A stretch of DNA of 64,000 bases from an uncultured virus (IMG/VR IMGVR_UViG_3300034118_000426). Its lineage: Duplodnaviria > Heunggongvirae > Uroviricota > Caudoviricetes. Both the position numbers and the translations under genes were made by a program. The notes under the pieces were generated by a model. The model saw only the letters and a program-made list of their open reading frames with translations. It was not told where the DNA came from and ran no database searches. Below, one piece after another: positions 18,310 through 30,615 of the stretch. Each line of letters opens with the position of its first letter. Position 1 is the first letter of the stretch. The stretch lies in the IMG/VR virus record IMGVR_UViG_3300034118_000426; one strand, given 5' to 3'.

Positions 18310-21300
18310 TCAAACCTCCACTATCCACCAACCTCTATTATCACTTGGTATCGTATTAACACCAGAAGAATCTGTATCTCCAACAAACATTAGACCAAAT
18401 CCAGCATTTGGAGTGTTAACTATTAACTCTCCGCCAGACCATCCACCAGTGCCACCTTGCGTTTTTTGAATATTTGTTCCGCCTTCAGATCTAATTTTTA
18501 GAGATACATTGTAATTCAAACTTCCCTGAATATCAATAAATCTAACCACATCTCCAGTTACACAATCAGAAGCCACAGGTAGATACAGAATTAGTTCGGA
18601 AGTAGGTCTGACCAAATATTGTGTATTTGGTTGTAGTCTTTGATTTGTAGCATTTAAATTTCCACTTTGGGCATCAATAGAAATAGTTCTTCTACCACCA
18701 TTTTTAGTATAGAAATTCTCTCTACCAAATGCTTGAATAGATCCATCCAATCTAATTCTAAATGGTTTATCATTATTAATACCGAGGTTTTCGACAGCAA
18801 ATACTGATGTAATTGCTGGAGCAGAAGTACTATATGTAGCATTAAGAGTTAATGTAGCGCCAGTTGCGGCAGATGATAATGGTTTACCAATTACTGTAGT
18901 ACCTAACTGTGCGTCTAAAGTTATGGTATTTGTTCCAGAAAGACCACTCTTAATAATAACATCATCTCCTGTAGTTAATGTTCCAGAAAGTCTCGTATTT
19001 CCAGAAGCACCTAATACTTCAAAGGCAATATCACTAGCGATATCCAACCTATTTTTGTCGAATACACCAGATGAGAAGAAAGAATCTTTAAATACCTGTA
19101 AATTTGCTCCATTATATAATCTGGTATTTCCAGTCGCACTTTCTACATATAATCTCGGAGCAGATCCATTAGTAATTACAAAATATTGTTTTGCTGGTAT
19201 AGTAGTGGAAGTATTTCCACTTAGTTCAATTGAATTATGTACTTTTAAATTACCACCACCCGATATAATATCAACACCGTTTAAACTAGAAGTGCTTGTA
19301 TCAGTTCCAATCGTGACATCGCCACGAGCAAATGTATCACCTGTTGTAGTAGTAACTTTAAAAGTTAATACCTTGCCAGCACCAATTCCTCCATTATTGA
19401 TTTCAAATGTTTGCGATTCATCTGGATTGATGCTAGAAATGGTTACAAATTCTTCATCCGCAGTATTTTTATCAATTCTTAATAAATCATTTATTTTAAA
19501 TGTTCCGCTAAATTCAGCAAGATTTATACTTGGTTGAACATCAGTAATACTAGATGGGAAAATATAAGTAGCATTTTCCGATTTATTTAATTTTACAACT
19601 TTAGATCCATCTGGGTGAGCAACAGCAGCTGTTCCATCTTGTCCTCTCAAAACTTCAACAGTATATGGATAAACAGAAGAAGGTAAGTTCGTTGTTCTAA
19701 CTATTTCCGTATTGATTAAGAAATATGTCCCAATTTCATTTATCCCAGATGGGTTGTTAATAGGTAGTGTTGTAAGAGTAGAACTGATTTCTGAAGCTCC
19801 ACCAGTGTCAATTAAAGTATCTTTTAATCTAAGTGTAGCATTACCAGGAGAAGTAGAACCAGATGCAAGATTAATAACAATGCCGCTACCACCACTTGTC
19901 GTTGAAAGAACTACTCCATTTAAATCGGCATTAACAACATAATATGTCGTAGTGGTGTTAACATTAGTAAAATTACCAGTATTTGTAAAGACTACCGAAT
20001 TACCCGACACGAGATAATTATTATTAATAACTAACTTAGTGGCTGGTGATGGATCTGTAACTGATAATACCGCAGTGATACTTTGAGATGAAGCAATATC
20101 TTCAACATATTCATAATAATCCACATTTAAATTAGAAGATGTTGCCCCATTGAATCCAGATAATTGTCCTTGATTATGGAACTTACCAAATCCTGTTCTA
20201 ATTACAGTACCAGTAGCAGAAGTTGAAGAAATCGTGCCACTTCCAGTAGTTGTATATGTAAATCTTGTTGTATTAACAACAGTAACATTAACAGTACCAA
20301 TGGTAGTGAACTGACTATTGCTACATACTATTCTAACAGGCATACCTGTAGTTAATCCATGTACCGCAGTAGTTGTTATTGTTGCGGTATTTCCAGTTCT
20401 AGAAACTTGAGAAATTTTAATAGTTCCTAATGTATTTCTAGTTGCTCCTACACTAGCATTTCTAAAACCACCATTTTGTTCAATATCACTTTCAAAAATT
20501 GTCTTGTTACTTACACGCAAACCATTCTTAATATAACTGATGCCAGCAGATCCACCAATTTCCACAATACCAGCAGTAGGACCAATCTTTAATGTAGTTA
20601 AATTCGATGGGAATAAAGTAAATTCTGTTGATGGAGTTGTAGCTAGAAGTTGTGTTCCCTTAATTTCAAGAGTTCCATCCAAAACAGTCTGATAATTTCT
20701 TACTCTAAAGATACTTTGAGAAGGATTGTTTATTGCTCCACCAAATGTAATGATTGAAGATGGGAAAGCATTTGGAGTTGCTGGGTTTGTAATCTGCGGA
20801 ACAACACCAATATTTACAATAGAGTTGTAACTATTGTTATGAACATTAAATGTGCCAGTAGCAGCAACACCAGTACCAATATTAACTGTCTGAGAGCTAG
20901 TTGTGGTATTGAATAGATTTGCTGTGGTGGCATTAGCACCAGCAGAGAACGTTAGAGCATTTGCTTCATTTGCGATATTAAATACTGCGTTTGTCGTGGT
21001 AATATCGCCACCATTAACTTCAATATCTGACTGGAATCTAAAGTCTCCAGTAATTCTACCATTTCCAGCGACAACCAGAGTTCTATCAAGATCTGCGTTG
21101 TTTACATTAATACCAACTCTACCGTTATTATTGGTAGAAATTCTTAGAGTAGCGGCAGCGGTGAGTGGGTTAGCACTATCGCCACCCACAACGAGTGCGT
21201 CATCTCTATTTGTTTGCGTCTTAGTTGTTCCAGTTTCAGTGAGATAAGAAAGAATCTTCTTGCCACTAATAAATGCTGTACCGACAACATCAAGGTTTGC

Positions 21301-24300
21301 TCTTGGTGTTGTTTCAGCAGAAACAAATGCTGTCTCATAGGCGCTATGAGCAGAACGTGCTACAGTGTTAATACCTAATTTATAATCACCAATTGTTTCC
21401 GTTTCTGTTCTAATCGCCTCAGACCCAAGAACACCAAACTCTTTAAATGCTGCTTTCGATTTCTCGATTACAATATTTGGTTGTGCTACCGCATCAACTG
21501 GGTATCCATTATTTGGAAGAGGAATAGCAGTGTAAAGTGGTAAGTTAGCATTAACAATAATATTAACAAAGTTATTGGTAGGAACAAATGGAATGCCAAC
21601 AGTACTATAAACAGGCCATACACCGTTGAGAGGAGCAAGAGCACCCGTAGCACCAGTAATACGAATTTGCGAAGAAGAAGAAATTTGTAACGCTGCGTTA
21701 GTAATGCCAACATTCCACGTCAATCTAACAATAGTACCAGAAGCTGCGCCCTGAATACCAATTATCTGAGCGTTAAATCCACCACCAGAACGATTCTCAA
21801 TACGAATGTAATCATTCGCATAGATCCATCCAAGAGATCCAGTGAATAAAGTTTGATTACCTTTTAATTGAATCAAACCTGATGCTAGAGGGAACTTAGT
21901 ACCAAAATCAGTATTTTGTAACTGCGAAGGACCGTTCGTAGTTAATCCAAATGTATTAGCAAGATCTGGCGTTCTATTAGATAGAGCCGTCATGATCTGA
22001 TAATCTTGTAATCCTCTTGGATTTAAATCAACAACTGTTGTTTGTAGTCTTCCTTGATGTAGGATGATATCGCCAGTTTTTTGTTGTGCGATATTTACTT
22101 CGAGGTATGGATCATAACCAACTACAGTTCCTTCTCCCGTTACAATCTTAAGTGATGGGAAATTCTCGACAGATCCAAATGCTGTAGTGTTATTGATTAC
22201 GATAGGAGCATTGAAGAAACTTTCTGCTCTGCCTTCAGAACCATTGACTGTAATAATTTCGTTAAATGTCACCGCAGTATCAAACGTGGTAACAAGACCA
22301 CCAATTACATCAGCTTCATCTGAAGATTCAACAAGTTTAGCAGACTCTAGGAATGTCTCTTCACCAGTAATAGCGTTGATCTTTCTGTTACCGATGTAAA
22401 GGTCACCGTTTGAGTTTAAACCAGTGTAGAAGACGATACCAGCGTCTTGCTTCTTCGCTTGAGCGTAGAAGTCCTGAACATCAGTAAGAATGATTTCCTG
22501 TCTTGCTGGGAAACCAGTTGAGTAGTTACCAGGACCGAATCCTAGATATTCAAATGTATGGTTACCAGAACGAGCGATGGATGGTCTGCGAAGTTCTACA
22601 TAAAGTTTTCCTTCTGTTGGATACTGAGAAGTTCCATTGATAGGAATTCTTCTACCTTCAGATCCAGCAGAAGCTGTACCAGACTGTGCCTGGATGGTAG
22701 ATGTACCGTTAAATGTGTATCCACCAGTTCCTGGATCTTGAACAAAATCAAGAACCATCTCTTTGGTCAAGCTATTCTTAGCATCGTTTACAGTTACCAG
22801 ACCATGAATGTAGTTGTCTGCGGTAGATACTGTTGGAGGTGGATCTGAAAGAGTTGTAGTTGTTAAATCTACACCCTTATACCATTCTGGATCATTCTTA
22901 TAGAACTCTGGATACAACTTAGAGATTGGTTGTGAGAACTTAAAGTTTCTGAAGTTTTCGCCAACACCCGAACCAGTTGGATATGGAGAAATATTACCTC
23001 TTACACAAGTCAAGTAATATACACCATCTTGCTGACCAGGAATTCTTCTACGAATGGTATTAATATCAAAAATGTAGAAAGTATTCTCCATATCAGAAAC
23101 ATCTTCCACACTAGCAATCGTGTAGGAAACACCATTGTCGTCATTTATTCTATCACCAGGAGTTAGTGTATAGACATTGGCACCTTCAACAACATATGGA
23201 TACTTGGTTATATCTGATCTACCATCATTTGGTTCACTAATGAGTGAAGCAGTTACTGAACCTTGTGTAAATATAGTGGGGGTGGTACTACTGTAATCAA
23301 GCACCGAGTTTCCTGTCAAATCTTTCAGGATCATGTAATAGTTATTTTCATACGCAAAATAACCATGTACATATCCACTACCAGAACAGTTGCCAGACCA
23401 AGATATTAAGTTAGTGCTGTTTGAATTAGGAATGCTTGAGACAAAGACACCATTACCACCTTCTGGTGAAGTAATTTTTACTGTAGTAAAAAGTTTTGTT
23501 TTGTAGGCTTCAGCATCAATTCCAATATCAAAAGCAGTTAATTGTAAATAATTTTTATTATTTACAGAAACTTTTCTTGCTGATTGAACCGTAAAAGCAA
23601 CTTTTGAAGTTGTCTCAAGTCTCTTCGGATTGCCAAAGGCAGATGGATCATATGTAGATACAAAATTTGGATTCAGTACAAGTTGCTCAGCAGTTGTGAG
23701 TCCAAGTCTTTCTCCCGATACTGGAGCGAGCAACGTTGCTGTATCTGCTCCTGTTGATGTTGGTTTAAGAAGAATTCTTTGTGGTAATAGTCTTCTCTTT
23801 TCATCTGTACGAATCTTAAATACGAATCCTCTGATTGGATCACGAACTGTCTTGAGATTCTTAGGAATAACATAACGAAGACGATATACTCTATCTTCCT
23901 TGGTTCTGTTATCCTCAATTCTTTCAAAGTATGAATCAGTGGTTCTCAATCTACCAGCATAATCCGACTGCTTCATTCTAGGAATGATCGTGTTGCCAGC
24001 AGATAGAGTTTCTAGATACCAACATCCATCAGTAGCAGCAGCACCAATCTTAGGATCATATCTCAGAGGAGATCTACGCTTATTAGAGAACGTATAGAAT
24101 ACCGCAGTGCTTCCTGGTTGGAAAGAAATAGGAGCAATGTTATCACGAGCGTTCGCAAATGTTTCGTGAATGGTAAATCTTCTAGCATTTACATAACGAA
24201 CGAAGTAAAGATTTTTGCCAGAAATAGTGGTTCCGCCAAACTGAGATGATAGTGTTGGTAGTGAAGATCCAGTAATATCAGACCCAACGCGGAAAAATAC

Positions 24301-27300
24301 TAACTGTGGTTCTACGTTTGTTGATGGTCTGTCAAAAGCATGTGGTCTATCAGTTTCAAGAATTGTGCTTGATCCAGAAGCAATCTTAGTCTGATATTGA
24401 TGTAAATCATAGTTAATGTCAAGAACATATTGATATACATCAATTTCTACGTTGGCATCAATACCATCTGTTTCAGACGAGTAGATGTAGATACCAGCAG
24501 CTGCGTTTTCTTCACTAGTTGCTAGTAATAGATTCTGTTGATTAGATCCGTTGAACGAACCAATCGTAGAATAATTAAATGGATCTGTAATTCTTCCAGG
24601 AGCAATAACATAATATACAGTATTTGTATCAAATCCTTTTGGCAGACGAATCAATCGTTTGTCTACATTAATACCAGATCTTGCTCTAGGTACAAGTCTG
24701 ACAGGAGTTCCTGTTTCTAACTGGTGTGGGTTGGAAGTAGGTAATCCATTGCTATCAGACTCTGTTAGAGTAAACAGCGTGGCTCTTTGTGCCAAAGCAC
24801 CTGTATTAATAGATGAGGCAACTCTAGGTACAGTCCCGATCCCACTATTAAGAATAGTAGATAGAATCTGATAGAAGTTAACAATCGTGCTTGCTGTAGA
24901 AGCACACTCGCCACCTGGAGCTCCAGTTGCTGGATCCCCAGCAGTCAAATAATTATAATCTTGTATTACACTAGAGTCGGTGGATGGTGTTAGTGTATTT
25001 GTCCAAACCCCTCGTGTAAATTCAACATAAAGATTAACATTTGTCGCCGTAGCAGTAGCATTTACTGTAGAACCAAAATCTAACTTACTACCTTGGGTTC
25101 CGAGTTGAATTTGGTTTGATGCTAATCCATTAACACCATCGCCAATCTTTTTAATATATGCGGTTGATGGAATTGTTGTTGTATATGCTATTGTGCTGCT
25201 AGAAGAAGTTGGAATCGCATTAACACTACGAACTCTCATACCAACAACAAGACCAACAGTGCTATTCACCGTAACGATTGGCGATCCAAATGTCGTGCTT
25301 GCGTTTGGAAGATATGTATTGTGATTTCTCATCGAAGAAATCGCCAAATCTCTCACATAACGATAAGCATCTAGAGTTTCTAGTTTTTCATTCTCAATGT
25401 AATCAAGTTGATTTCCAGTGTAATATGCTTCTGCTGCGTTAATTGTATTAACGTTTCCGCCCAATCTTAGGTCAGAAGTGATAGCTTCTACAATGTATCC
25501 AATGTCACGCTTACACTTGCTTGATTCACTTACCTGTGACCAAGGACCAGGATTTCTAACAGGAAGATTATTCAAATTACCAGCAAGAATAGTGCTAGTG
25601 ATGATATTTGTTAGAGTATCAATCGTCTGTCTTACGTTAGCACAATCCCAATCTCCATTATCTACAGCAGGAAGACCAGAAATACTACCCGCATTAACAA
25701 CGCTAGTAACAATTGAGAATAGAGAATCTACTGCTGATTGTACATCTGTACAAGTAGCACCGTTACCAGAGGCATTGTAGGAAACATTGCCACCAGAACC
25801 ACCAGCAGTTGCTGGACCAGTTGATAAAGCAAGATTCTTTGTATAAAGTTGATTGGTAAGAGCTCTCTTACACCAATCTCTTGCCTTATTAAAAGCAACA
25901 ACAGATTCTGCCGATTCGCCAACTAATCCATTGGAAATTGGTGTACCTGCTTGCGTGAAATACTCTCTTACAGCACCAACAGTGAACTCGTTTCCACCCC
26001 AGAAGAGGTCTTGTGCGATAGAGTCAACGATGTAACCAATATCACGCTTACACTTAGTTTCTCCAGCTGGAATAACAGTAGAAACTTGTTCAGGAGCAAG
26101 ATTTGTAATGTTTCCTGCGCTTAAATTAGAAGTAACAATAAAAGTAAGACTGTCAATTGCTAATCTTACGTCAGCACACGAATTAGGACTTGTGTTTGGG
26201 ATGTTACCACCAGTTCCGCTATAGTTTGCTGGTCCAGAAGTAATGGTAGCATCTTTGATTGTTAATTGATTGGTCAGCGCATCTTTCATCAAATTACGAG
26301 CTTTTACAAAAGCAACGTTTGACTGATCAATTTCCCCCGCCAGTCCATTTGGAAGTAGTGTGGTGGCATTGGTAAAATATTGTTGGAGGAATTTGCGTGT
26401 ATATACGTTGCCAGCACCCTGAGAAATATCTAGAGAAACAGCATCAATAAAGAATTCAATATCACGCTTACACTTATCTGGATCTGGATTTGTAAAACTA
26501 GGATACTGAATGGCAATTTCTGCGTATGCTCCATCCACAATCTCTTGCTTATTTTGTTGAATTAAACGATAAGCATCTTTGTAACGAGAGATTGATGTTG
26601 TTTGAGGATCTCCAGGATAGTAAAAATCTGGGAATTGAACAGCAATTTCAGCAGCTGCTCTATCAATAATTTCCTGTCTGTTGGCAGTAATTAATTTGCT
26701 ACCATCCTTAAATCTACCAACATTTGCGTCATCATTTACTGGATCAATCGTAATTGTTGAGACGTAAATAGCACCAGTGGCATTTGTTACTCCAGGAGCT
26801 GTTGGTACGGTATATCTAAACTGAGTGCTTGTTAATCCAGCAGAAAGAACCTGAAATTTTCCATTAAATGCTGTTTGTGTAGCACCACCAACAGTTACAA
26901 ATTGGTTTGGTTGTAGATTATGTGGTGTGAGAGTTGTTACAGTAATAGTTGTACCAGAAGCAGAAAGTGTTGGAGTATTAAGAAGTGATGTATTTGTTAA
27001 TAAGTTTGAAATTGCTTTCTTTGACCAATCTTTGGCTCTGTTAAAAGCAAATACCGATTGAGTTTCTTCACCAGCGAGACCATTTGTAAGTGGTTGACCA
27101 GAAGAATTGAAATACGCTCTAGTAGCGTCAATCATATTGGAGTTGCCACCAGTGTACAAATCATTGGCAATGGCATCTACAATATAACCAATATCTCTCT
27201 TACACTTTTCGTTGGCATTTCCTCCCCCAGGAACAGTAAATGCTGGGAAAGCAGTTTGCATTTGTGAAAACGCATAATCAATAATTTCTTGGCGGTTTGC

Positions 27301-29562
27301 CTTGATTAGATTACTTGCGTCTCTAAAACGACCAGTTTCTGCAGTAATATTTGGATTTACATAAGGAATATTCTGAAGATTTGGGTATTTCTCTAAAATA
27401 TATCCAAATGCTTCAGATTGAATAAATGTCTTGTTAGCATCAATTAAATTGGCAGCATCTTGTCTGAGATTATACTCAGTAGTAAATCCAACACCCGTAG
27501 GATTTAAGGTTGATAGAGATGCTGTCCACTTCTTAAATCCAGAATGAATCAAATCTGCTGATTTAGCACCAGAAGCATCTAATTTTACAAAGATTTTTTC
27601 GTTTCTCTTAGCACCAAGTCTATAACCGTCAATAGAAGCTGCTGGGCGATCTTCTGGATTGCGAGCATCTTCTGCGCCCAAATAAAGTCTCGTTGAGTTT
27701 GGATTTAGCGAAGTGCCTCTTACTAGAGGTACATCAAATGTATAATATTGCTTTCTAATTGTCTTTAATGTAGACAGTGATTTTGGTGGGATAATATCCG
27801 TAACATATCCACCTTTATCTTGGTTGAAAGCAAATCCTTTGTAACCAATAGCATGGAGTGAGGTATTACCAAAGTTCGAGTTTGAGTTGGTGATAGACAT
27901 ATCACCACCAGACTCCATTAGGAAGTGATCAGCAAAACCTACAGCGAAGATCGAAACGCACTGAATGAAGGAGTCATCAGATGCCTTAACGTGGAAGTTT
28001 CTCCAATCGTCTTTCCAGTATGCGTCACCCTTGATGTGATAAGGAGTTGTAGCAAACGCATCAGTTAGAGGTGCCTGATTCCATGTGTTGCTGAACTCAT
28101 CGTAGCGAATAAACGCACGATCGTCTTTCTGTAGAGAAACACCAGTGTACTGAGCGATAACCATGGATTTGAAACCAGTGGCTTTCTTACCATCTGCCCA
28201 GATACCACAAATACCCCAAGTCGAACGAATCGAAACGTTGAAGACGTATGGTGATGCTGATTCTACGCTATCCACCTCCGCCTGTACGGTAGCATTGGTG
28301 TCAAGAGCAGGGGATGAAGCAGCAGTGTAAGTTGTGCCACTAACAAGACCCAATCCAGTGGCGGTCGCTGGTACTCTATAAGTAAATACTTTGGGGTCTG
28401 TTGGACTGATGCTGAATACCTGAAATACTCCATTTAGAGTATCATTTAAACCATTATTAGTAATAGCAACATATTGACCAGGAAAAAATCCATGATTAAT
28501 TTTCGTGCGTACCGTTAATGTAGCAACACCAGCAGGAGAAGAATCATCAATTCTTACCTCATCAAGACGAATAGCATCCTGTAGAGGACCAACAATTCTA
28601 TTTTCTTGTACTCTAAAATCAAATTCTCTATTACGAATAACCATCAACGTCCATTTATTTGGATTTGTTGATGGAACTGAATTTGTTGAAGATGAGGAAG
28701 CTTGATATGCTTGACCATTATAAAGAACTTTATCCCCAGCAGTATAAGTAGTGGTGGAAGACCAATATTCTGTTACAGGAAGAGTTTGACCCTCTACATA
28801 TACATCATCAATAGGTGGTTGGAAATCGCTGAATACGTGAGAAATCTTTCTGTAAAGAAGACCAAGATCCTGTCTATCAGCAAAAACAAAGTTTGTAATC
28901 TTGTGGTGTGAAAACTCAGGAACGAGTTTAGTTACAGTGTCGTTTGGTTGAGTGTAAACTTTACCAATACCAGCAGTGGCATCGTAAAGAGGAGAATTAG
29001 AAGAAAGATCTCCATCCTGAATAGTGAACTGCCAGAAATAACAACCACCAGTTACATTAAATAAGGCACAACGAGGAACATCTTTGTCCGCAGGATCAGG
29101 AACATAAAGTGGACGTAGTTGAGTTCTACGCAAATCCATACCTACAAGAGATGTACCTCTAGGAATTGTAGCACCACCATCACGTCCATTAAATTTATAA
29201 AGAATGTTATTTGGATCGCTTAGATTAAAACTTACATTGCTGTTTGTTTCCCACTCGCCAAGTGCTTGATTATACTGAAAAACAGGTAGATCTGCTACGT
29301 TTTCTATGCCTGGGCGGTTGTCAATGTGGTGTACACCAGGAGACAACATGATCGTAAATTGATCGAAACGATCATTGTCAATTCCTGGGAGATACGAGAA
29401 TCTTGCTACTTCAAGAAAAGCTCTCTGAATGCTTACGAATGGTCTTGTTGGTGAATTTCCTCTGTTGTCTAACGCATCTGTAGCATTAAAGTCGTCAGGA
29501 GAAACATAAAGATACTTACCAGTCTTACTTGAAAGTAGATTATCTAATCTCGTTAATGGCAT
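18310..29562 (-). CDS. giant tail fibre/virion protein (3750 aa): beta-helix-like N-terminus, CBM5/12-like insert, four nested phycobiliprotein-like domains, beta-barrel repeats and a fibre-type C-terminus
   Basis: N-terminus YLYVSPDD...RGNSPTRPFVSIQRA is typical of cyanophage fibres. Four KCKRD repeats. HG...G..V beta-barrel repeats. Late promoter upstream. Confidence 0.85.
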   Translation of the reverse strand: MPLTRLDNLLSSKTGKYLYVSPDDFNATDALDNRGNSPTRPFVSIQRAFLEVARFSYLPGIDNDRFDQFTIMLSPGVHHIDNRPGIENVADLPVFQYNQALGEWETNSNVSFNLSDPNNILYKFNGRDGGATIPRGTSLVGMDLRRTQLRPLYVPDPADKDVPRCALFNVTGGCYFWQFTIQDGDLSSNSPLYDATAGIGKVYTQPNDTVTKLVPEFSHHKITNFVFADRQDLGLLYRKISHVFSDFQPPIDDVYVEGQTLPVTEYWSSTTTYTAGDKVLYNGQAYQASSSSTNSVPSTNPNKWTLMVIRNREFDFRVQENRIVGPLQDAIRLDEVRIDDSSPAGVATLTVRTKINHGFFPGQYVAITNNGLNDTLNGVFQVFSISPTDPKVFTYRVPATATGLGLVSGTTYTAASSPALDTNATVQAEVDSVESASPYVFNVSIRSTWGICGIWADGKKATGFKSMVIAQYTGVSLQKDDRAFIRYDEFSNTWNQAPLTDAFATTPYHIKGDAYWKDDWRNFHVKASDDSFIQCVSIFAVGFADHFLMESGGDMSITNSNSNFGNTSLHAIGYKGFAFNQDKGGYVTDIIPPKSLSTLKTIRKQYYTFDVPLVRGTSLNPNSTRLYLGAEDARNPEDRPAASIDGYRLGAKRNEKIFVKLDASGAKSADLIHSGFKKWTASLSTLNPTGVGFTTEYNLRQDAANLIDANKTFIQSEAFGYILEKYPNLQNIPYVNPNITAETGRFRDASNLIKANRQEIIDYAFSQMQTAFPAFTVPGGGNANEKCKRDIGYIVDAIANDLYTGGNSNMIDATRAYFNSSGQPLTNGLAGEETQSVFAFNRAKDWSKKAISNLLTNTSLLNTPTLSASGTTITVTTLTPHNLQPNQFVTVGGATQTAFNGKFQVLSAGLTSTQFRYTVPTAPGVTNATGAIYVSTITIDPVNDDANVGRFKDGSKLITANRQEIIDRAAAEIAVQFPDFYYPGDPQTTSISRYKDAYRLIQQNKQEIVDGAYAEIAIQYPSFTNPDPDKCKRDIEFFIDAVSLDISQGAGNVYTRKFLQQYFTNATTLLPNGLAGEIDQSNVAFVKARNLMKDALTNQLTIKDATITSGPANYSGTGGNIPNTSPNSCADVRLAIDSLTFIVTSNLSAGNITNLAPEQVSTVIPAGETKCKRDIGYIVDSIAQDLFWGGNEFTVGAVREYFTQAGTPISNGLVGESAESVVAFNKARDWCKRALTNQLYTKNLALSTGPATAGGSGGNVSYNASGNGATCTDVQSAVDSLFSIVTSVVNAGSISGLPAVDNGDWDCANVRQTIDTLTNIITSTILAGNLNNLPVRNPGPWSQVSESSKCKRDIGYIVEAITSDLRLGGNVNTINAAEAYYTGNQLDYIENEKLETLDAYRYVRDLAISSMRNHNTYLPNASTTFGSPIVTVNSTVGLVVGMRVRSVNAIPTSSSSTIAYTTTIPSTAYIKKIGDGVNGLASNQIQLGTQGSKLDFGSTVNATATATNVNLYVEFTRGVWTNTLTPSTDSSVIQDYNYLTAGDPATGAPGGECASTASTIVNFYQILSTILNSGIGTVPRVASSINTGALAQRATLFTLTESDSNGLPTSNPHQLETGTPVRLVPRARSGINVDKRLIRLPKGFDTNTVYYVIAPGRITDPFNYSTIGSFNGSNQQNLLLATSEENAAAGIYIYSSETDGIDANVEIDVYQYVLDINYDLHQYQTKIASGSSTILETDRPHAFDRPSTNVEPQLVFFRVGSDITGSSLPTLSSQFGGTTISGKNLYFVRYVNARRFTIHETFANARDNIAPISFQPGSTAVFYTFSNKRRSPLRYDPKIGAAATDGCWYLETLSAGNTIIPRMKQSDYAGRLRTTDSYFERIEDNRTKEDRVYRLRYVIPKNLKTVRDPIRGFVFKIRTDEKRRLLPQRILLKPTSTGADTATLLAPVSGERLGLTTAEQLVLNPNFVSTYDPSAFGNPKRLETTSKVAFTVQSARKVSVNNKNYLQLTAFDIGIDAEAYKTKLFTTVKITSPEGGNGVFVSSIPNSNSTNLISWSGNCSGSGYVHGYFAYENNYYMILKDLTGNSVLDYSSTTPTIFTQGSVTASLISEPNDGRSDITKYPYVVEGANVYTLTPGDRINDDNGVSYTIASVEDVSDMENTFYIFDINTIRRRIPGQQDGVYYLTCVRGNISPYPTGSGVGENFRNFKFSQPISKLYPEFYKNDPEWYKGVDLTTTTLSDPPPTVSTADNYIHGLVTVNDAKNSLTKEMVLDFVQDPGTGGYTFNGTSTIQAQSGTASAGSEGRRIPINGTSQYPTEGKLYVELRRPSIARSGNHTFEYLGFGPGNYSTGFPARQEIILTDVQDFYAQAKKQDAGIVFYTGLNSNGDLYIGNRKINAITGEETFLESAKLVESSDEADVIGGLVTTFDTAVTFNEIITVNGSEGRAESFFNAPIVINNTTAFGSVENFPSLKIVTGEGTVVGYDPYLEVNIAQQKTGDIILHQGRLQTTVVDLNPRGLQDYQIMTALSNRTPDLANTFGLTTNGPSQLQNTDFGTKFPLASGLIQLKGNQTLFTGSLGWIYANDYIRIENRSGGGFNAQIIGIQGAASGTIVRLTWNVGITNAALQISSSSQIRITGATGALAPLNGVWPVYSTVGIPFVPTNNFVNIIVNANLPLYTAIPLPNNGYPVDAVAQPNIVIEKSKAAFKEFGVLGSEAIRTETETIGDYKLGINTVARSAHSAYETAFVSAETTPRANLDVVGTAFISGKKILSYLTETGTTKTQTNRDDALVVGGDSANPLTAAATLRISTNNNGRVGINVNNADLDRTLVVAGNGRITGDFRFQSDIEVNGGDITTTNAVFNIANEANALTFSAGANATTANLFNTTTSSQTVNIGTGVAATGTFNVHNNSYNSIVNIGVVPQITNPATPNAFPSSIITFGGAINNPSQSIFRVRNYQTVLDGTLEIKGTQLLATTPSTEFTLFPSNLTTLKIGPTAGIVEIGGSAGISYIKNGLRVSNKTIFESDIEQNGGFRNASVGATRNTLGTIKISQVSRTGNTATITTTAVHGLTTGMPVRIVCSNSQFTTIGTVNVTVVNTTRFTYTTTGSGTISSTSATGTVIRTGFGKFHNQGQLSGFNGATSSNLNVDYYEYVEDIASSQSITAVLSVTDPSPATKLVINNNYLVSGNSVVFTNTGNFTNVNTTTTYYVVNADLNGVVLSTTSGGSGIVINLASGSTSPGNATLRLKDTLIDTGGASEISSTLTTLPINNPSGINEIGTYFLINTEIVRTTNLPSSVYPYTVEVLRGQDGTAAVAHPDGSKVVKLNKSENATYIFPSSITDVQPSINLAEFSGTFKINDLLRIDKNTADEEFVTISSINPDESQTFEINNGGIGAGKVLTFKVTTTTGDTFARGDVTIGTDTSTSSLNGVDIISGGGNLKVHNSIELSGNTSTTIPAKQYFVITNGSAPRLYVESATGNTRLYNGANLQVFKDSFFSSGVFDKNRLDIASDIAFEVLGASGNTRLSGTLTTGDDVIIKSGLSGTNTITLDAQLGTTVIGKPLSSAATGATLTLNATYSTSAPAITSVFAVENLGINNDKPFRIRLDGSIQAFGRENFYTKNGGRRTISIDAQSGNLNATNQRLQPNTQYLVRPTSELILYLPVASDCVTGDVVRFIDIQGSLNYNVSLKIRSEGGTNIQKTQGGTGGWSGGELIVNTPNAGFGLMFVGDTDSSGVNTIPSDNRGWWIVEV
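24840..27475 (-). repeat. four nested phycobiliprotein-like protein repeats inside the giant fibre
   Basis: Four D-[AG]-x-x-L-I-x-x-N segments, four KCKRD segments and four C-x-x-x-x-x-[AT]-[IV] helices. Confidence 0.8.
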
Positions 29563-29600
29563 TACTCAGTTACCCGTAACTATGGTTATTTCTTCTGAGT

Positions 29601-29608
29601 TATTTATA
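29601..29608 (-). promoter_or_regulatory. T4-type late promoter TATAAATA for the giant fibre
   Basis: tatttata on the plus strand, 38 nt upstream of the ATG at 29562. Confidence 0.8.
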
Positions 29609-29609
29609 C

Positions 29610-29635
29610 AAAAAAACCCAAGGCGAACCTTAGGT
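29610..29635 (-). terminator. Rho-independent terminator after cpeT/tRNA-Thr
   Basis: ACCTAAGG-TTCG-CCTTGGGT followed by a T run. Confidence 0.85.
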
Positions 29636-29660
29636 GTGATTTGACTTCCTTCACACGGAG

Positions 29661-29734
29661 AGCCCCAAGTCGGACTTGAACCAACGACCTACGGTTTACA
29701 AAACCGTTGCTCTATCCAGCTGAGCTATTAGGGC
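29661..29734 (-). tRNA. tRNA-Thr(UGU)
   Basis: GCCCTAA-TAGCTCAGCTGGATAGAGC, anticodon arm ACGGT-TTTGTAA-ACCGT, GGTTCAAGTCC. CCA is not encoded. Confidence 0.95.
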
Positions 29735-30197
29735 ATTTGACGAACTGGAAATTCCCATTAAAGGAACCCCAAACATGTTCGTCGGTATTTATATCGTATC
29801 CCTTGTCAATTACGTGATAGTAACCGTTTCCGAGAATACTTTGTGTTTGTAGATAGGTTTCTTTTCCCGACCAGGAGACAAGACATTCTTTACAGAGATT
29901 TTTGCCGTGAAATTCATCACCTATCAACTCAAATAGTATATCACATCCAGAGAGATATGTCAAGTCGTTTTCTTCTTTGTAATTTTTCACAAGAAGTGTT
30001 GACTCTTGAGGAATGACCTCAATAACTGATTTACGATACGCTCGTTTATCAACATAATATTGTTGAGTACAGCGAAACTGGTTTTTACCAATTTTTTCGT
30101 GAATCATCTCAATCATAGCAAACTTTGTAGGATGAGACATTGCTTGCATACAATTATTAAAATTACCCTCAAAGTATTCACAAAATTTGTCAATCAT
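29712..30197 (-). CDS. cpeT: CpcT/CpeT-family (T-type) phycobiliprotein lyase
   Basis: F.G.F.N..QA...P..F, YR, GCDI.F, F.G....C.V, DKGYD......VWGS..G.F.F.K family pattern. Confidence 0.9.
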   Translation of the reverse strand: MIDKFCEYFEGNFNNCMQAMSHPTKFAMIEMIHEKIGKNQFRCTQQYYVDKRAYRKSVIEVIPQESTLLVKNYKEENDLTYLSGCDILFELIGDEFHGKNLCKECLVSWSGKETYLQTQSILGNGYYHVIDKGYDINTDEHVWGSFNGNFQFVKCPNSSAG

Positions 30198-30456
30198 CTT
30201 TAGGCAATAATTCTGGATTTTCTACTTCTATGTCAAACATCAATGGATGCATTTCTTCCATTATTAAATAATTGGAATAAACATACAAATCTTCATCATC
30301 ATAATCACGATGAGAAAGAGCTTCTGTTTGAACTGATGGATGGTCTTGTATAAGTTGAGGAAGTTCGTCAAACGTATAAGGAAGACCTTGAATGAAATAC
30401 ATACGAACAACCTCACCCATATAAAAACAATATGCTTGAGAAAGTGTGTATTTCAT
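30190..30456 (-). CDS. hypothetical phage protein (MKYTLSQAYCFY...MYFIQGLPYTFDEL)
   Basis: Start moved to 30456 because the longer ORF runs through tRNA-Leu. It overlaps the cpeT start. Confidence 0.8.
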   Translation of the reverse strand: MKYTLSQAYCFYMGEVVRMYFIQGLPYTFDELPQLIQDHPSVQTEALSHRDYDDEDLYVYSNYLIMEEMHPLMFDIEVENPELLPKDD

Positions 30457-30475: not shown

Positions 30476-30482
30476 TATTTAG
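30476..30482 (-). promoter_or_regulatory. late promoter CTAAATA upstream of the hypothetical-cpeT pair
   Basis: tatttag on the plus strand, between tRNA-Leu and the ATG at 30456. Confidence 0.6.
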
Positions 30483-30586: not shown

Positions 30587-30615
30587 ATTATAGCAGGTGC
30601 TCTAGGGACTGTCAA
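30587..30615 (-). promoter_or_regulatory. consensus sigma70 promoter for tRNA-Leu, hypothetical, cpeT and tRNA-Thr
   Basis: Perfect TTGACA-17 nt-TATAAT, with an extended TG. Confidence 0.9.

Follow-up and report, generated by a model that had tools for sequence, protein, structure and literature searches.

Here, we analyse a 64,000-nucleotide stretch of DNA (the window) from an uncultured virus, IMG/VR record IMGVR_UViG_3300034118_000426, which encodes on its minus strand a giant virion fibre of 3750 amino acids (aa) and a homologue of the phycobilin lyase CpeT. On sequence evidence, four KCKRD-bearing repeats within the fibre are genuine homologues of phycobiliproteins (PBPs) and keep the Cys84-type cysteine. 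By the same kind of evidence, they belong to a large family of PBP-descended virion-protein domains that, among 50,697 phage records, is found only in cyanophages. The residues these domains keep suggest that they may hold a bilin. Both genes were named in a preliminary description of this DNA, and both are real: the fibre open reading frame (ORF) by ORF call and translation, and cpeT as the nearest protein gene upstream of it, likewise on the minus strand.

Phycobiliprotein homology of the fibre repeats

The four repeats, here R1 to R4, are present as first described, with KCKRD at aa 786, 1030, 1170 and 1349. When they are aligned, K-C-K-R-D-I, an Asp, a GGN and a Tyr are invariant; the repeats are otherwise 25–45% identical to one another. 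Pfam family PF00502 (Phycobilisome protein) matches fibre aa 748–804 with an E-value of 3.4e-12 and 47 bits, against a gathering cut-off of 22.2. With single repeats as queries, R1 scores 33.9 bits and R2 21.4, just below the cut-off. R3 is tied to R1 by internal homology (44% identity), and R4 by internal homology to the other repeats and a profile match at E 1.5e-56. With a single sequence as query, the PDB yielded nothing but PBP chains at E ≤ 1, 17 distinct sequences in all (best E 0.02), and the alignment of the fibre segment EKCKRDIGYIVDAIANDLYTGGN over C-phycocyanin alpha puts Cys787 on Cys84. A profile of 53 sequences, made from R1 and its IMG/VR orthologues (A2), found 101 PDB sequences at E ≤ 1; the best 60 of the 101 are all PBPs, with a top E of 1.1e-6, and the alignment spans PBP residues 27–104, Cys84 included.

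Structure prediction followed by Foldseek had been proposed as a check, and it returned a PBP/globin-type fold. AlphaFold2 model 1 covers aa 690–880 and was made with templates unused; its confidence score (pLDDT) averages 66.5 and is about 75–91 over residues 54–176. The best 50 Foldseek matches to this model are all PBPs or PBP-derived fluorescent proteins. VIA-align, run against representative structures, places the phycoerythrin (PE) beta chain 5aqd_M first (Z 12.2, root-mean-square deviation (rmsd) 2.6, 127 aa). Next come the allophycocyanin (APC) chain 8imk_G (11.9), far-red APC 8or7_A (11.0), ApcE 4xxi_A (10.8), PE-alpha 1b8d_A (10.6) and, in sixth place, photocobilin 8j2y_B (10.3); ordinary globins score about 7. 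The best match to model 1 spans chain residues 3–163, which would take in the X–Y hairpin region, but the N-terminal 53 residues of the model have pLDDT below 50. Model 2 covers aa 1010–1300 (pLDDT 78.2). Its residues 1–139 (aa 1010–1148) align with PE-beta residues 51–184 at Z 10.2 (rmsd 2.4, 115 aa) and also with the ends of APC and PE-alpha chains, and ApcE 4xxi_A is matched at Z 9.4. Model 2 shows helices E, F, G and H in R3. All four repeats are predicted to retain helices B, E, F and G of the globin-type PBP fold, with helix H additionally in R2 and R3. We count the likeness as homology because it has sequence evidence behind it, beyond fold Z alone.

Each repeat had been credited with two conserved cysteines. 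This is so for R2 and R3, and not for R1 and R4, which have no Cys-bearing helix after them: R1 is without a Cys-capped helix, and an extra one, with Cys1307, precedes R4. The figure of up to eight candidate bilin sites per chain accordingly drops to seven, four of Cys84 type (Cys787, Cys1031, Cys1171, Cys1350) and three at helix caps (Cys1129, Cys1271, Cys1307). A further residue, Cys1231, is confined to close relatives. In orthologues down to about 46% identity, a Gly/Ser/Pro-rich loop and then [ST]-C-[AST]-[DN]-V-x-x-A-[IV]-D come after the E-F-G unit of both R2 and R3. Cys1031 and Cys1129 of R2 are both conserved in most orthologues, and the R3 cysteines, numbered C162 and C262 in alignment A3, show conservation of 90% or more. 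In model 2, Cys1129 and Cys1271 immediately precede helices 121–140 and 263–282. Since the model 2 alignment reaches the C-terminal helix H of PBPs, the Cys-capped helix is taken as helix H of the preceding domain. Alignment ranges and topology would then place Cys1129 and Cys1271 where beta subunits carry Cys153/155, that is, as beta-155-like residues. A single-sequence phmmer search of the PDB with R2 plus its helix H gave no match at E ≤ 10.

The position of these cysteines matters for the choice of lyase. T-type lyases are site-specific for Cys-beta155, and attachment at Cys84 sites falls to lyases of the S/U or E/F type (PMC2327270). We had at one stage regarded a T-type lyase as a poor fit to the fibre, the invariant Cys being of Cys84 type, and revised this view on seeing the Cys-capped helix H in model 2.

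A family of domains in cyanophage virion proteins

A profile of the four repeats, searched against 1.84 billion cluster representatives, found 1129 proteins at E ≤ 1e-3, 744 of them at E ≤ 1e-10. The 1129 proteins range from 0.5 to 8 thousand aa (kaa) in length and carry up to 35 copies of the domain each; a cluster look-up of ten giant homologues returned uninformative names. With R1 as a tblastn query, 360 of the 50,697 phage records matched, of which 359 are named Synechococcus, Prochlorococcus or Cyanophage and the remaining one is a "Marine virus" from a single-cell genome. A divergent family member used as the query on the same set matched 251 records, cyanophages plus nine named "Marine". 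For comparison, a gp32 search found 1734 T4-like records (378 named Synechococcus, 61 Cyanophage, the rest mostly phages of enterobacteria, Vibrio and Acinetobacter), and no non-cyanobacterial T4-like phage among these 1734 appears in the R1 match list. The domain recurs in one or two additional giant proteins of related genomes, among them gp7-like baseplate proteins of 6–8 kaa; P-SSM4, P-TIM40, P-RSM4 and S-RIM2 have domain-bearing baseplate proteins of this size.

We assessed conservation in 1507 copies from the window fibre and the 150 best-scoring library proteins, a set biased to close matches, in which the Cys is kept in 96%, the Arg in 94%, the Asp three residues on in 98% and the Tyr in 97%. 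Among 16 diverse isolates, the Cys is kept in 58 of 66 copies, and the Asp and Tyr almost always. The helix-cap pattern C-x-[DNES]-[VIL] follows 32 of these 58 Cys-bearing copies, at +88 to +118. A stricter cap pattern follows 151 of 1411 C.RD motifs in the top-150 set and is found nowhere in 99 of its 142 multi-repeat proteins. Among the gp7-like giants of S-RIM2, S-RIM12, S-SM1, S-IOM18, S-CAM8, P-RSM4, P-TIM40 and P-SSM4 (L116–L125), the Cys84 position comes in subtypes: C-x-R-D, C-x-D-D and C-K-T-D.

A scan of GTDB with the narrow pattern KCKRDI[GE][YF] gave 36 pattern matches and one confirmed locus, and says little about bacteria. The confirmed locus (L003) lies on a 4.4-kb contig, CAJXMP010000232.1, of a metagenome-assembled genome labelled uncultured Lewinella, and may be a binned phage fragment.

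Bilin binding and the role of cpeT

The best explanation of these results, in our view, is that fibre aa ~735–1435 make up four PBP-descended domains of a virion tail or baseplate fibre, which retain the residues that in PBPs secure the bilin at Cys84, namely the Cys itself, the Asp three positions on and the Tyr about 30 positions on. This trio corresponds to the phycocyanin ligand residues named in PMC8717448. R2 and R3 would add the helix-H N-cap Cys, the site of the second bilin in beta subunits. A host-made bilin would be bound covalently as the fibre folds in the infected cell, giving a pigmented virion. Attachment may be autocatalytic, or may be carried out by a host lyase of S/U, E/F or T type, or by the phage CpeT at the beta-155-like Cys.

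There are precedents for such an arrangement. In ApcE (LCM), a bilin domain of PBP type is embedded in a structural protein of very large size and many domains, and it attaches its own bilin autocatalytically, without a separate lyase (PMC2327270). BBAGs are PBP-like globins described as self-assembling biliproteins (PMC10151467), and photoglobin is another PBP-like globin with a kept pocket, outside light harvesting (PMC8717448); for PBP-like globins of this kind, bilin binding has been proposed or shown (PMC10151467, PMC8717448). The likeness has its limits. ApcE is a linker of the host antenna core with one PBP domain, whereas the phage virion proteins carry 4 to 35 copies. BBAGs, photoglobins and photocobilins are soluble bacterial proteins linked to signalling or biosynthesis, whereas the fibre domains are part of a virion protein. 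By term search, the word "phage" is confined to bilin-reductase contexts in PMC10151467 and absent from PMC8717448. As for PBP alpha and beta subunits themselves (phycocyanin, PE, APC; PF00502), the fibre repeats share with them homology over helices B–E, the K-C-x-R-D-I-G-Y motif and the same predicted fold, and R2 and R3 would also share the helix-H N-cap Cys of beta-subunit type. PBP subunits, however, are free proteins of 160–180 aa, whereas the fibre domains, known here from sequence and models, are tandem repeats with shorter loops and a family-specific Asp and GGN.

We think the residue conservation is most likely to reflect covalent binding of a host bilin. Because of the BBAG and ApcE precedents and the kept ligand residues, we put the probability of a covalent bilin on the fibre, and so on the virion, at roughly 45%, a little under even odds. 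If a bilin is bound, the virions of cyanophages would be the first of any phage known to be pigmented, and an antenna protein of the host would have been recruited to the apparatus of infection. Such binding would also bear on the light-only adsorption of some cyanomyoviruses (PMC6628666; PMC2984593), and on the substrate of phage cpeT, a gene whose role is called unresolved in PMC3037559.

Several observations weigh against a bound bilin, or against too close an analogy with PBPs. Scanned singly, R3 and R4 give no PF00502 match at the cut-off of 22.2. Coloured preparations of cyanomyoviruses are, to our knowledge, unreported. The Foldseek E-values for model 1 run from 6.3e-3 (best) to 2.5e-2, none at or below 0.001. 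Middling VIA Z-scores arise by chance for helical folds, and an RsbR-type globin reaches Z 10.5 on model 2, as high as the PBPs. The family has residues of its own that are absent from PBPs, an Asp at +14 after the Cys (97% of the 1507 copies) and the GGN (75/66/82%), and therefore its pocket may differ from that of PBPs. The Arg of C-x-R-D is replaced in the C-x-D-D and C-K-T-D subtypes, and in P-SSM4 the Cys is absent from all three detected copies, for example with K-K-T-D in place of C-K-T-D. Finally, we found neither a ferredoxin-dependent bilin reductase nor a haem oxygenase in four related records (the nearest, G001, 45% complete, and three near-complete genomes), so any bilin would be host-made.

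A pigment-free role of the domains is a real possibility, though one we would still call tentative. It supposes that phages captured a host PBP gene, whose product then came to serve giant fibre and baseplate proteins as a helical spacer or oligomerisation module; folding or packing would account for the Cys, Asp and Tyr. The cpeT gene would then be a standard auxiliary metabolic gene whose target is host phycoerythrin, close to the fibre merely by inherited order in a variable, tRNA-rich region. The occurrence of the module in up to 35 copies, in proteins of 1–8 kaa, resembles that of structural repeats, and the loose genomic relation of cpeT to the domain, described below, fits as well: separate transcription units, an interval of varying content, wide separation in some genomes and absence of cpeT from others. 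On the other hand, the residues kept at 96–98% are exactly the bilin-contacting ones, in repeats otherwise so divergent; the domain is restricted to phages of bilin-making hosts; and packing alone leaves a lone conserved Cys per repeat unexplained. Even a pigment-free domain would mean a large, cyanophage-confined family of host-derived PBP folds in virion proteins, with 1129 cluster representatives.

The preliminary description went further, making CpeT the dedicated lyase of the beta-155-like Cys and the pigmented fibre a gate that controls adsorption by light; taken whole, this seems unlikely to us. The window CpeT is a clear member of its family, with matches to Pfam CpeT PF06206 (E 1.8e-23, 83.8 bits against a cut-off of 21) and, in the PDB, to the cyanophage "antenna protein" 5hi8 (E 4.3e-15; PhiCpeT) and to CpcT 4o4o (E 2.7e-12). 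Known T-type lyases act on Cys-beta155 of host PBPs (PMC2327270), whereas the window CpeT is placed by sequence. Their site specificity, the predicted capping of helix H by Cys1129 and Cys1271, as by beta-155, and the uncertain role of phage cpeT all speak for the proposal.

The arrangement of the two genes argues against it. Judged by consensus-motif predictions, cpeT belongs to one transcription unit and the fibre to another, because a tRNA-Thr, a terminator-like hairpin and the fibre's own late-type motif TATAAATA lie between them, and a sigma-70-type promoter precedes the cpeT unit. Late-type promoters had been assigned to both genes; the fibre does have an exact TATAAATA, whereas cpeT has only CTAAATA. 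In the window, TATAAATA is not enriched (7 found, 5.7 expected), and CTAAATA is rarer than chance (6 found, 15 expected).

Synteny is similarly equivocal. Of the 80 IMG/VR loci that best match R1, 44 carry a same-strand cpeT at 2.36–4.2 kb upstream of the domain; five have about 10 kb of upstream DNA without cpeT, and 31 have too little upstream DNA to judge. All 80 belong to one clade, and the adjacency is therefore inherited gene order, not independent evidence. Loci L021–L024 have lost cpeT and kept the fibre together with the 88-aa ORF that precedes cpeT in the window. In S-PM2 and S-RSM4, the cpeT–fibre interval holds tRNAs plus a 2OG-Fe(II) oxygenase or an HNH endonuclease. Elsewhere in the Kyanoviridae (S-RIM2, S-RIM8, Syn9 and ACG-2014a/b), the two are some 50 kb apart, with cpeT near 13 kb and the domain at 60–75 kb.

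For co-occurrence, the Pfam CpeT model and the A1 profile were run on the complete genomes of 28 isolates; ten had been picked as likely discordant, 14 were evenly spread gp32 matches, and P-HM1, P-HM2, S-PM2 and S-RSM4 were added by hand. Both cpeT and the domain are present in 20 genomes, the four hand-added ones included, and neither in three (P-SSM2, S-SM2, S-SSM7). None of the 28 has cpeT without the domain, which favours a link (Fisher p 0.017, uncorrected for phylogeny and from a partly hand-picked sample). Five of the 25 domain-bearing genomes (S-B43, S-T4, S-RIM14, ACG-2014d, ACG-2014f) are without cpeT, as is a 90%-complete IMG/VR genome with the domain, and these count against it; ACG-2014f gives a partial CpeT match by tblastn, though it is negative with the Pfam model. 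We had predicted that the second Cys would vanish where cpeT is missing. This failed: the beta-155-like motif is kept in three of the five cpeT-less genomes, in three of four copies in ACG-2014d, three of four in S-RIM14 and the single copy in S-B43. Host T-type lyases could substitute, so the motif in these genomes weakens the link without refuting it. Prediction of a CpeT–R2 complex gave no answer (score 0.01, mark 0.32) and speaks neither for nor against binding. Overall, genomic support for a functional link between CpeT and the fibre is weak, and we consider it doubtful that CpeT is the fibre's lyase, itself a sub-case of bilin binding.

Adsorption of S-PM2 is reportedly light-dependent. 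Such behaviour has been described in several marine cyanomyoviruses (PMC2984593); P-HM1 and P-HM2 show no adsorption in the dark, and P-SSM2 adsorbs in the dark at below its light level (Liu et al. 2019, PMC6628666). P-HM1 and P-HM2 carry both the domain and cpeT, and P-SSM2 carries neither. This agreement, over three phages, is a lead and not evidence. That bilins on fibre and baseplate domains act as a virion photoreceptor gating adsorption, with CpeT as the lyase for the beta-155-like sites, strikes us as quite improbable; were it so, cpeT would gain its long-missing substrate, and light-dependent adsorption would be explained.

It is also conceivable, though we think it unlikely, that the pocket holds a non-bilin ligand, or that the Cys makes inter-chain disulfide, thioether or metal links that stabilise a trimeric fibre: the E-helix Asp residues at +3, +9/10 and +14 from the Cys, like the GGN, are not PBP features, and globin-fold relatives such as the RsbR-type globin bind varied ligands (PMC8717448), but nothing points to any specific alternative ligand, and the Cys-Asp-Tyr trio matches the PBP ligand residues.

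Feature map of the window

The window derives from a T4-like cyanomyovirus; its best DNA similarity is to S-PM2 and S-RSM4, at 78–84% over short parts. Neighbouring genes encode a gp5-like hub, tail collar proteins and gp48-/gp53-like proteins, and psbA, phoH and gp32 lie farther off. The fibre matches the PHROG profiles phrog_4527 ("short tail fiber", E 0) and phrog_529 ("tail fiber", E 2.4e-300), and the orthologous proteins of S-PM2 and S-RSM4 carry the annotation "short tail fiber", as members of the phrog_4527, phrog_529 and phrog_701 giants of T4-like cyanophages. In the database annotations of cyanophage giants that we examined, which give structural-protein names only, the PBP-like domain goes unmentioned. 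Nor did we find a description of it in phage virion proteins in the literature searched, a collection with few subscription journals. A profile search of the window finds the domain in the fibre only. At fibre aa 267–304 (~28651–28764, minus strand), there is also a CBM_5_12-like carbohydrate-binding motif (E 4.9e-5), its 23.7 bits being under the 26.2 cut-off.

Table 1. Positions of the fibre, its PBP-like domains and candidate bilin sites, and the elements around cpeT in the window.
Feature	Position	Strand	Basis or remark
Giant virion fibre ORF (tail or baseplate fibre)	18310..29562	-	3750 aa; ORF and translation, PHROG matches
PBP-like domain R4, aa 1296–1435	25258..25677	-	Cys84-type Cys1350, codon 25513–25515; known from sequence alone
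Extra Cys-capped helix in R4, Cys1307	codon 25642–25644	-	
PBP-like domain R3, aa 1150–1295	25678..26115	-	Cys84-type Cys1171, codon 26050–26052
Putative R3 helix-H N-cap Cys1271	codon 25750–25752	-	Model, conservation
PBP-like domain R2, aa 979–1150	26113..26628	-	Cys84-type Cys1031, codon 26470–26472
Putative R2 helix-H N-cap Cys1129, beta-155-like	codon 26176–26178	-	Model and orthologue alignment
PBP-like domain R1, aa 735–870	26953..27360	-	Cys84-type Cys787, codon 27202–27204; no helix-H Cys after it
T4-late-type motif TATAAATA	29601..29608	-	Exact match, 39 nt upstream of fibre ATG (29562)
Terminator-like hairpin with T-run	29616..29635	-	8 pairs, 4-nt loop, then TTTTTTT
tRNA-Thr (UGU)	29660..29734	-	ARAGORN; overlaps final 23 bases of cpeT ORF
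cpeT, T-type phycobilin lyase homologue	29712..30197	-	161 aa; Pfam and PDB matches
Small conserved ORF, phrog_4134	30190..30456	-	88 aa, E 1e-40; stop overlaps cpeT start (ATGA)
CTAAATA, weak motif (claimed cpeT late promoter)	30476..30482	-	
Sigma-70-type promoter	30587..30615	-	TTGACA-17-TATAAT with TG, 12/12; upstream of tRNA-Leu, small ORF, cpeT

Read 5′ to 3′ on the minus strand, the order is tRNA-Met, sigma-70-type promoter, tRNA-Leu, CTAAATA, 88-aa ORF and cpeT, and then tRNA-Thr, the hairpin, which lies between tRNA-Thr and the fibre's TATAAATA, that motif and the fibre ATG. The three tRNAs flank the cpeT unit, as they do in S-RSM4 and S-PM2. The 88-aa ORF is translationally coupled to cpeT, and in related loci too it directly precedes that gene; 44 of the 80 loci have the ORF, and cpeT is present in 40 of these. 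In P-SSM4 (AY940168.2, 16642–17064, plus strand), we detect a 148-aa CpeT-family ORF (Pfam E 2.4e-10). The review PMC2984593 states that cpeT is absent from this phage, contrary to our finding; Table 3 of Sullivan et al. 2010 lists a P-SSM4 cpeT of 444 nt. Finally, a related IMG/VR genome that is 100% complete has a CpeT match with one internal TAG (G005:C1:46979-47452).

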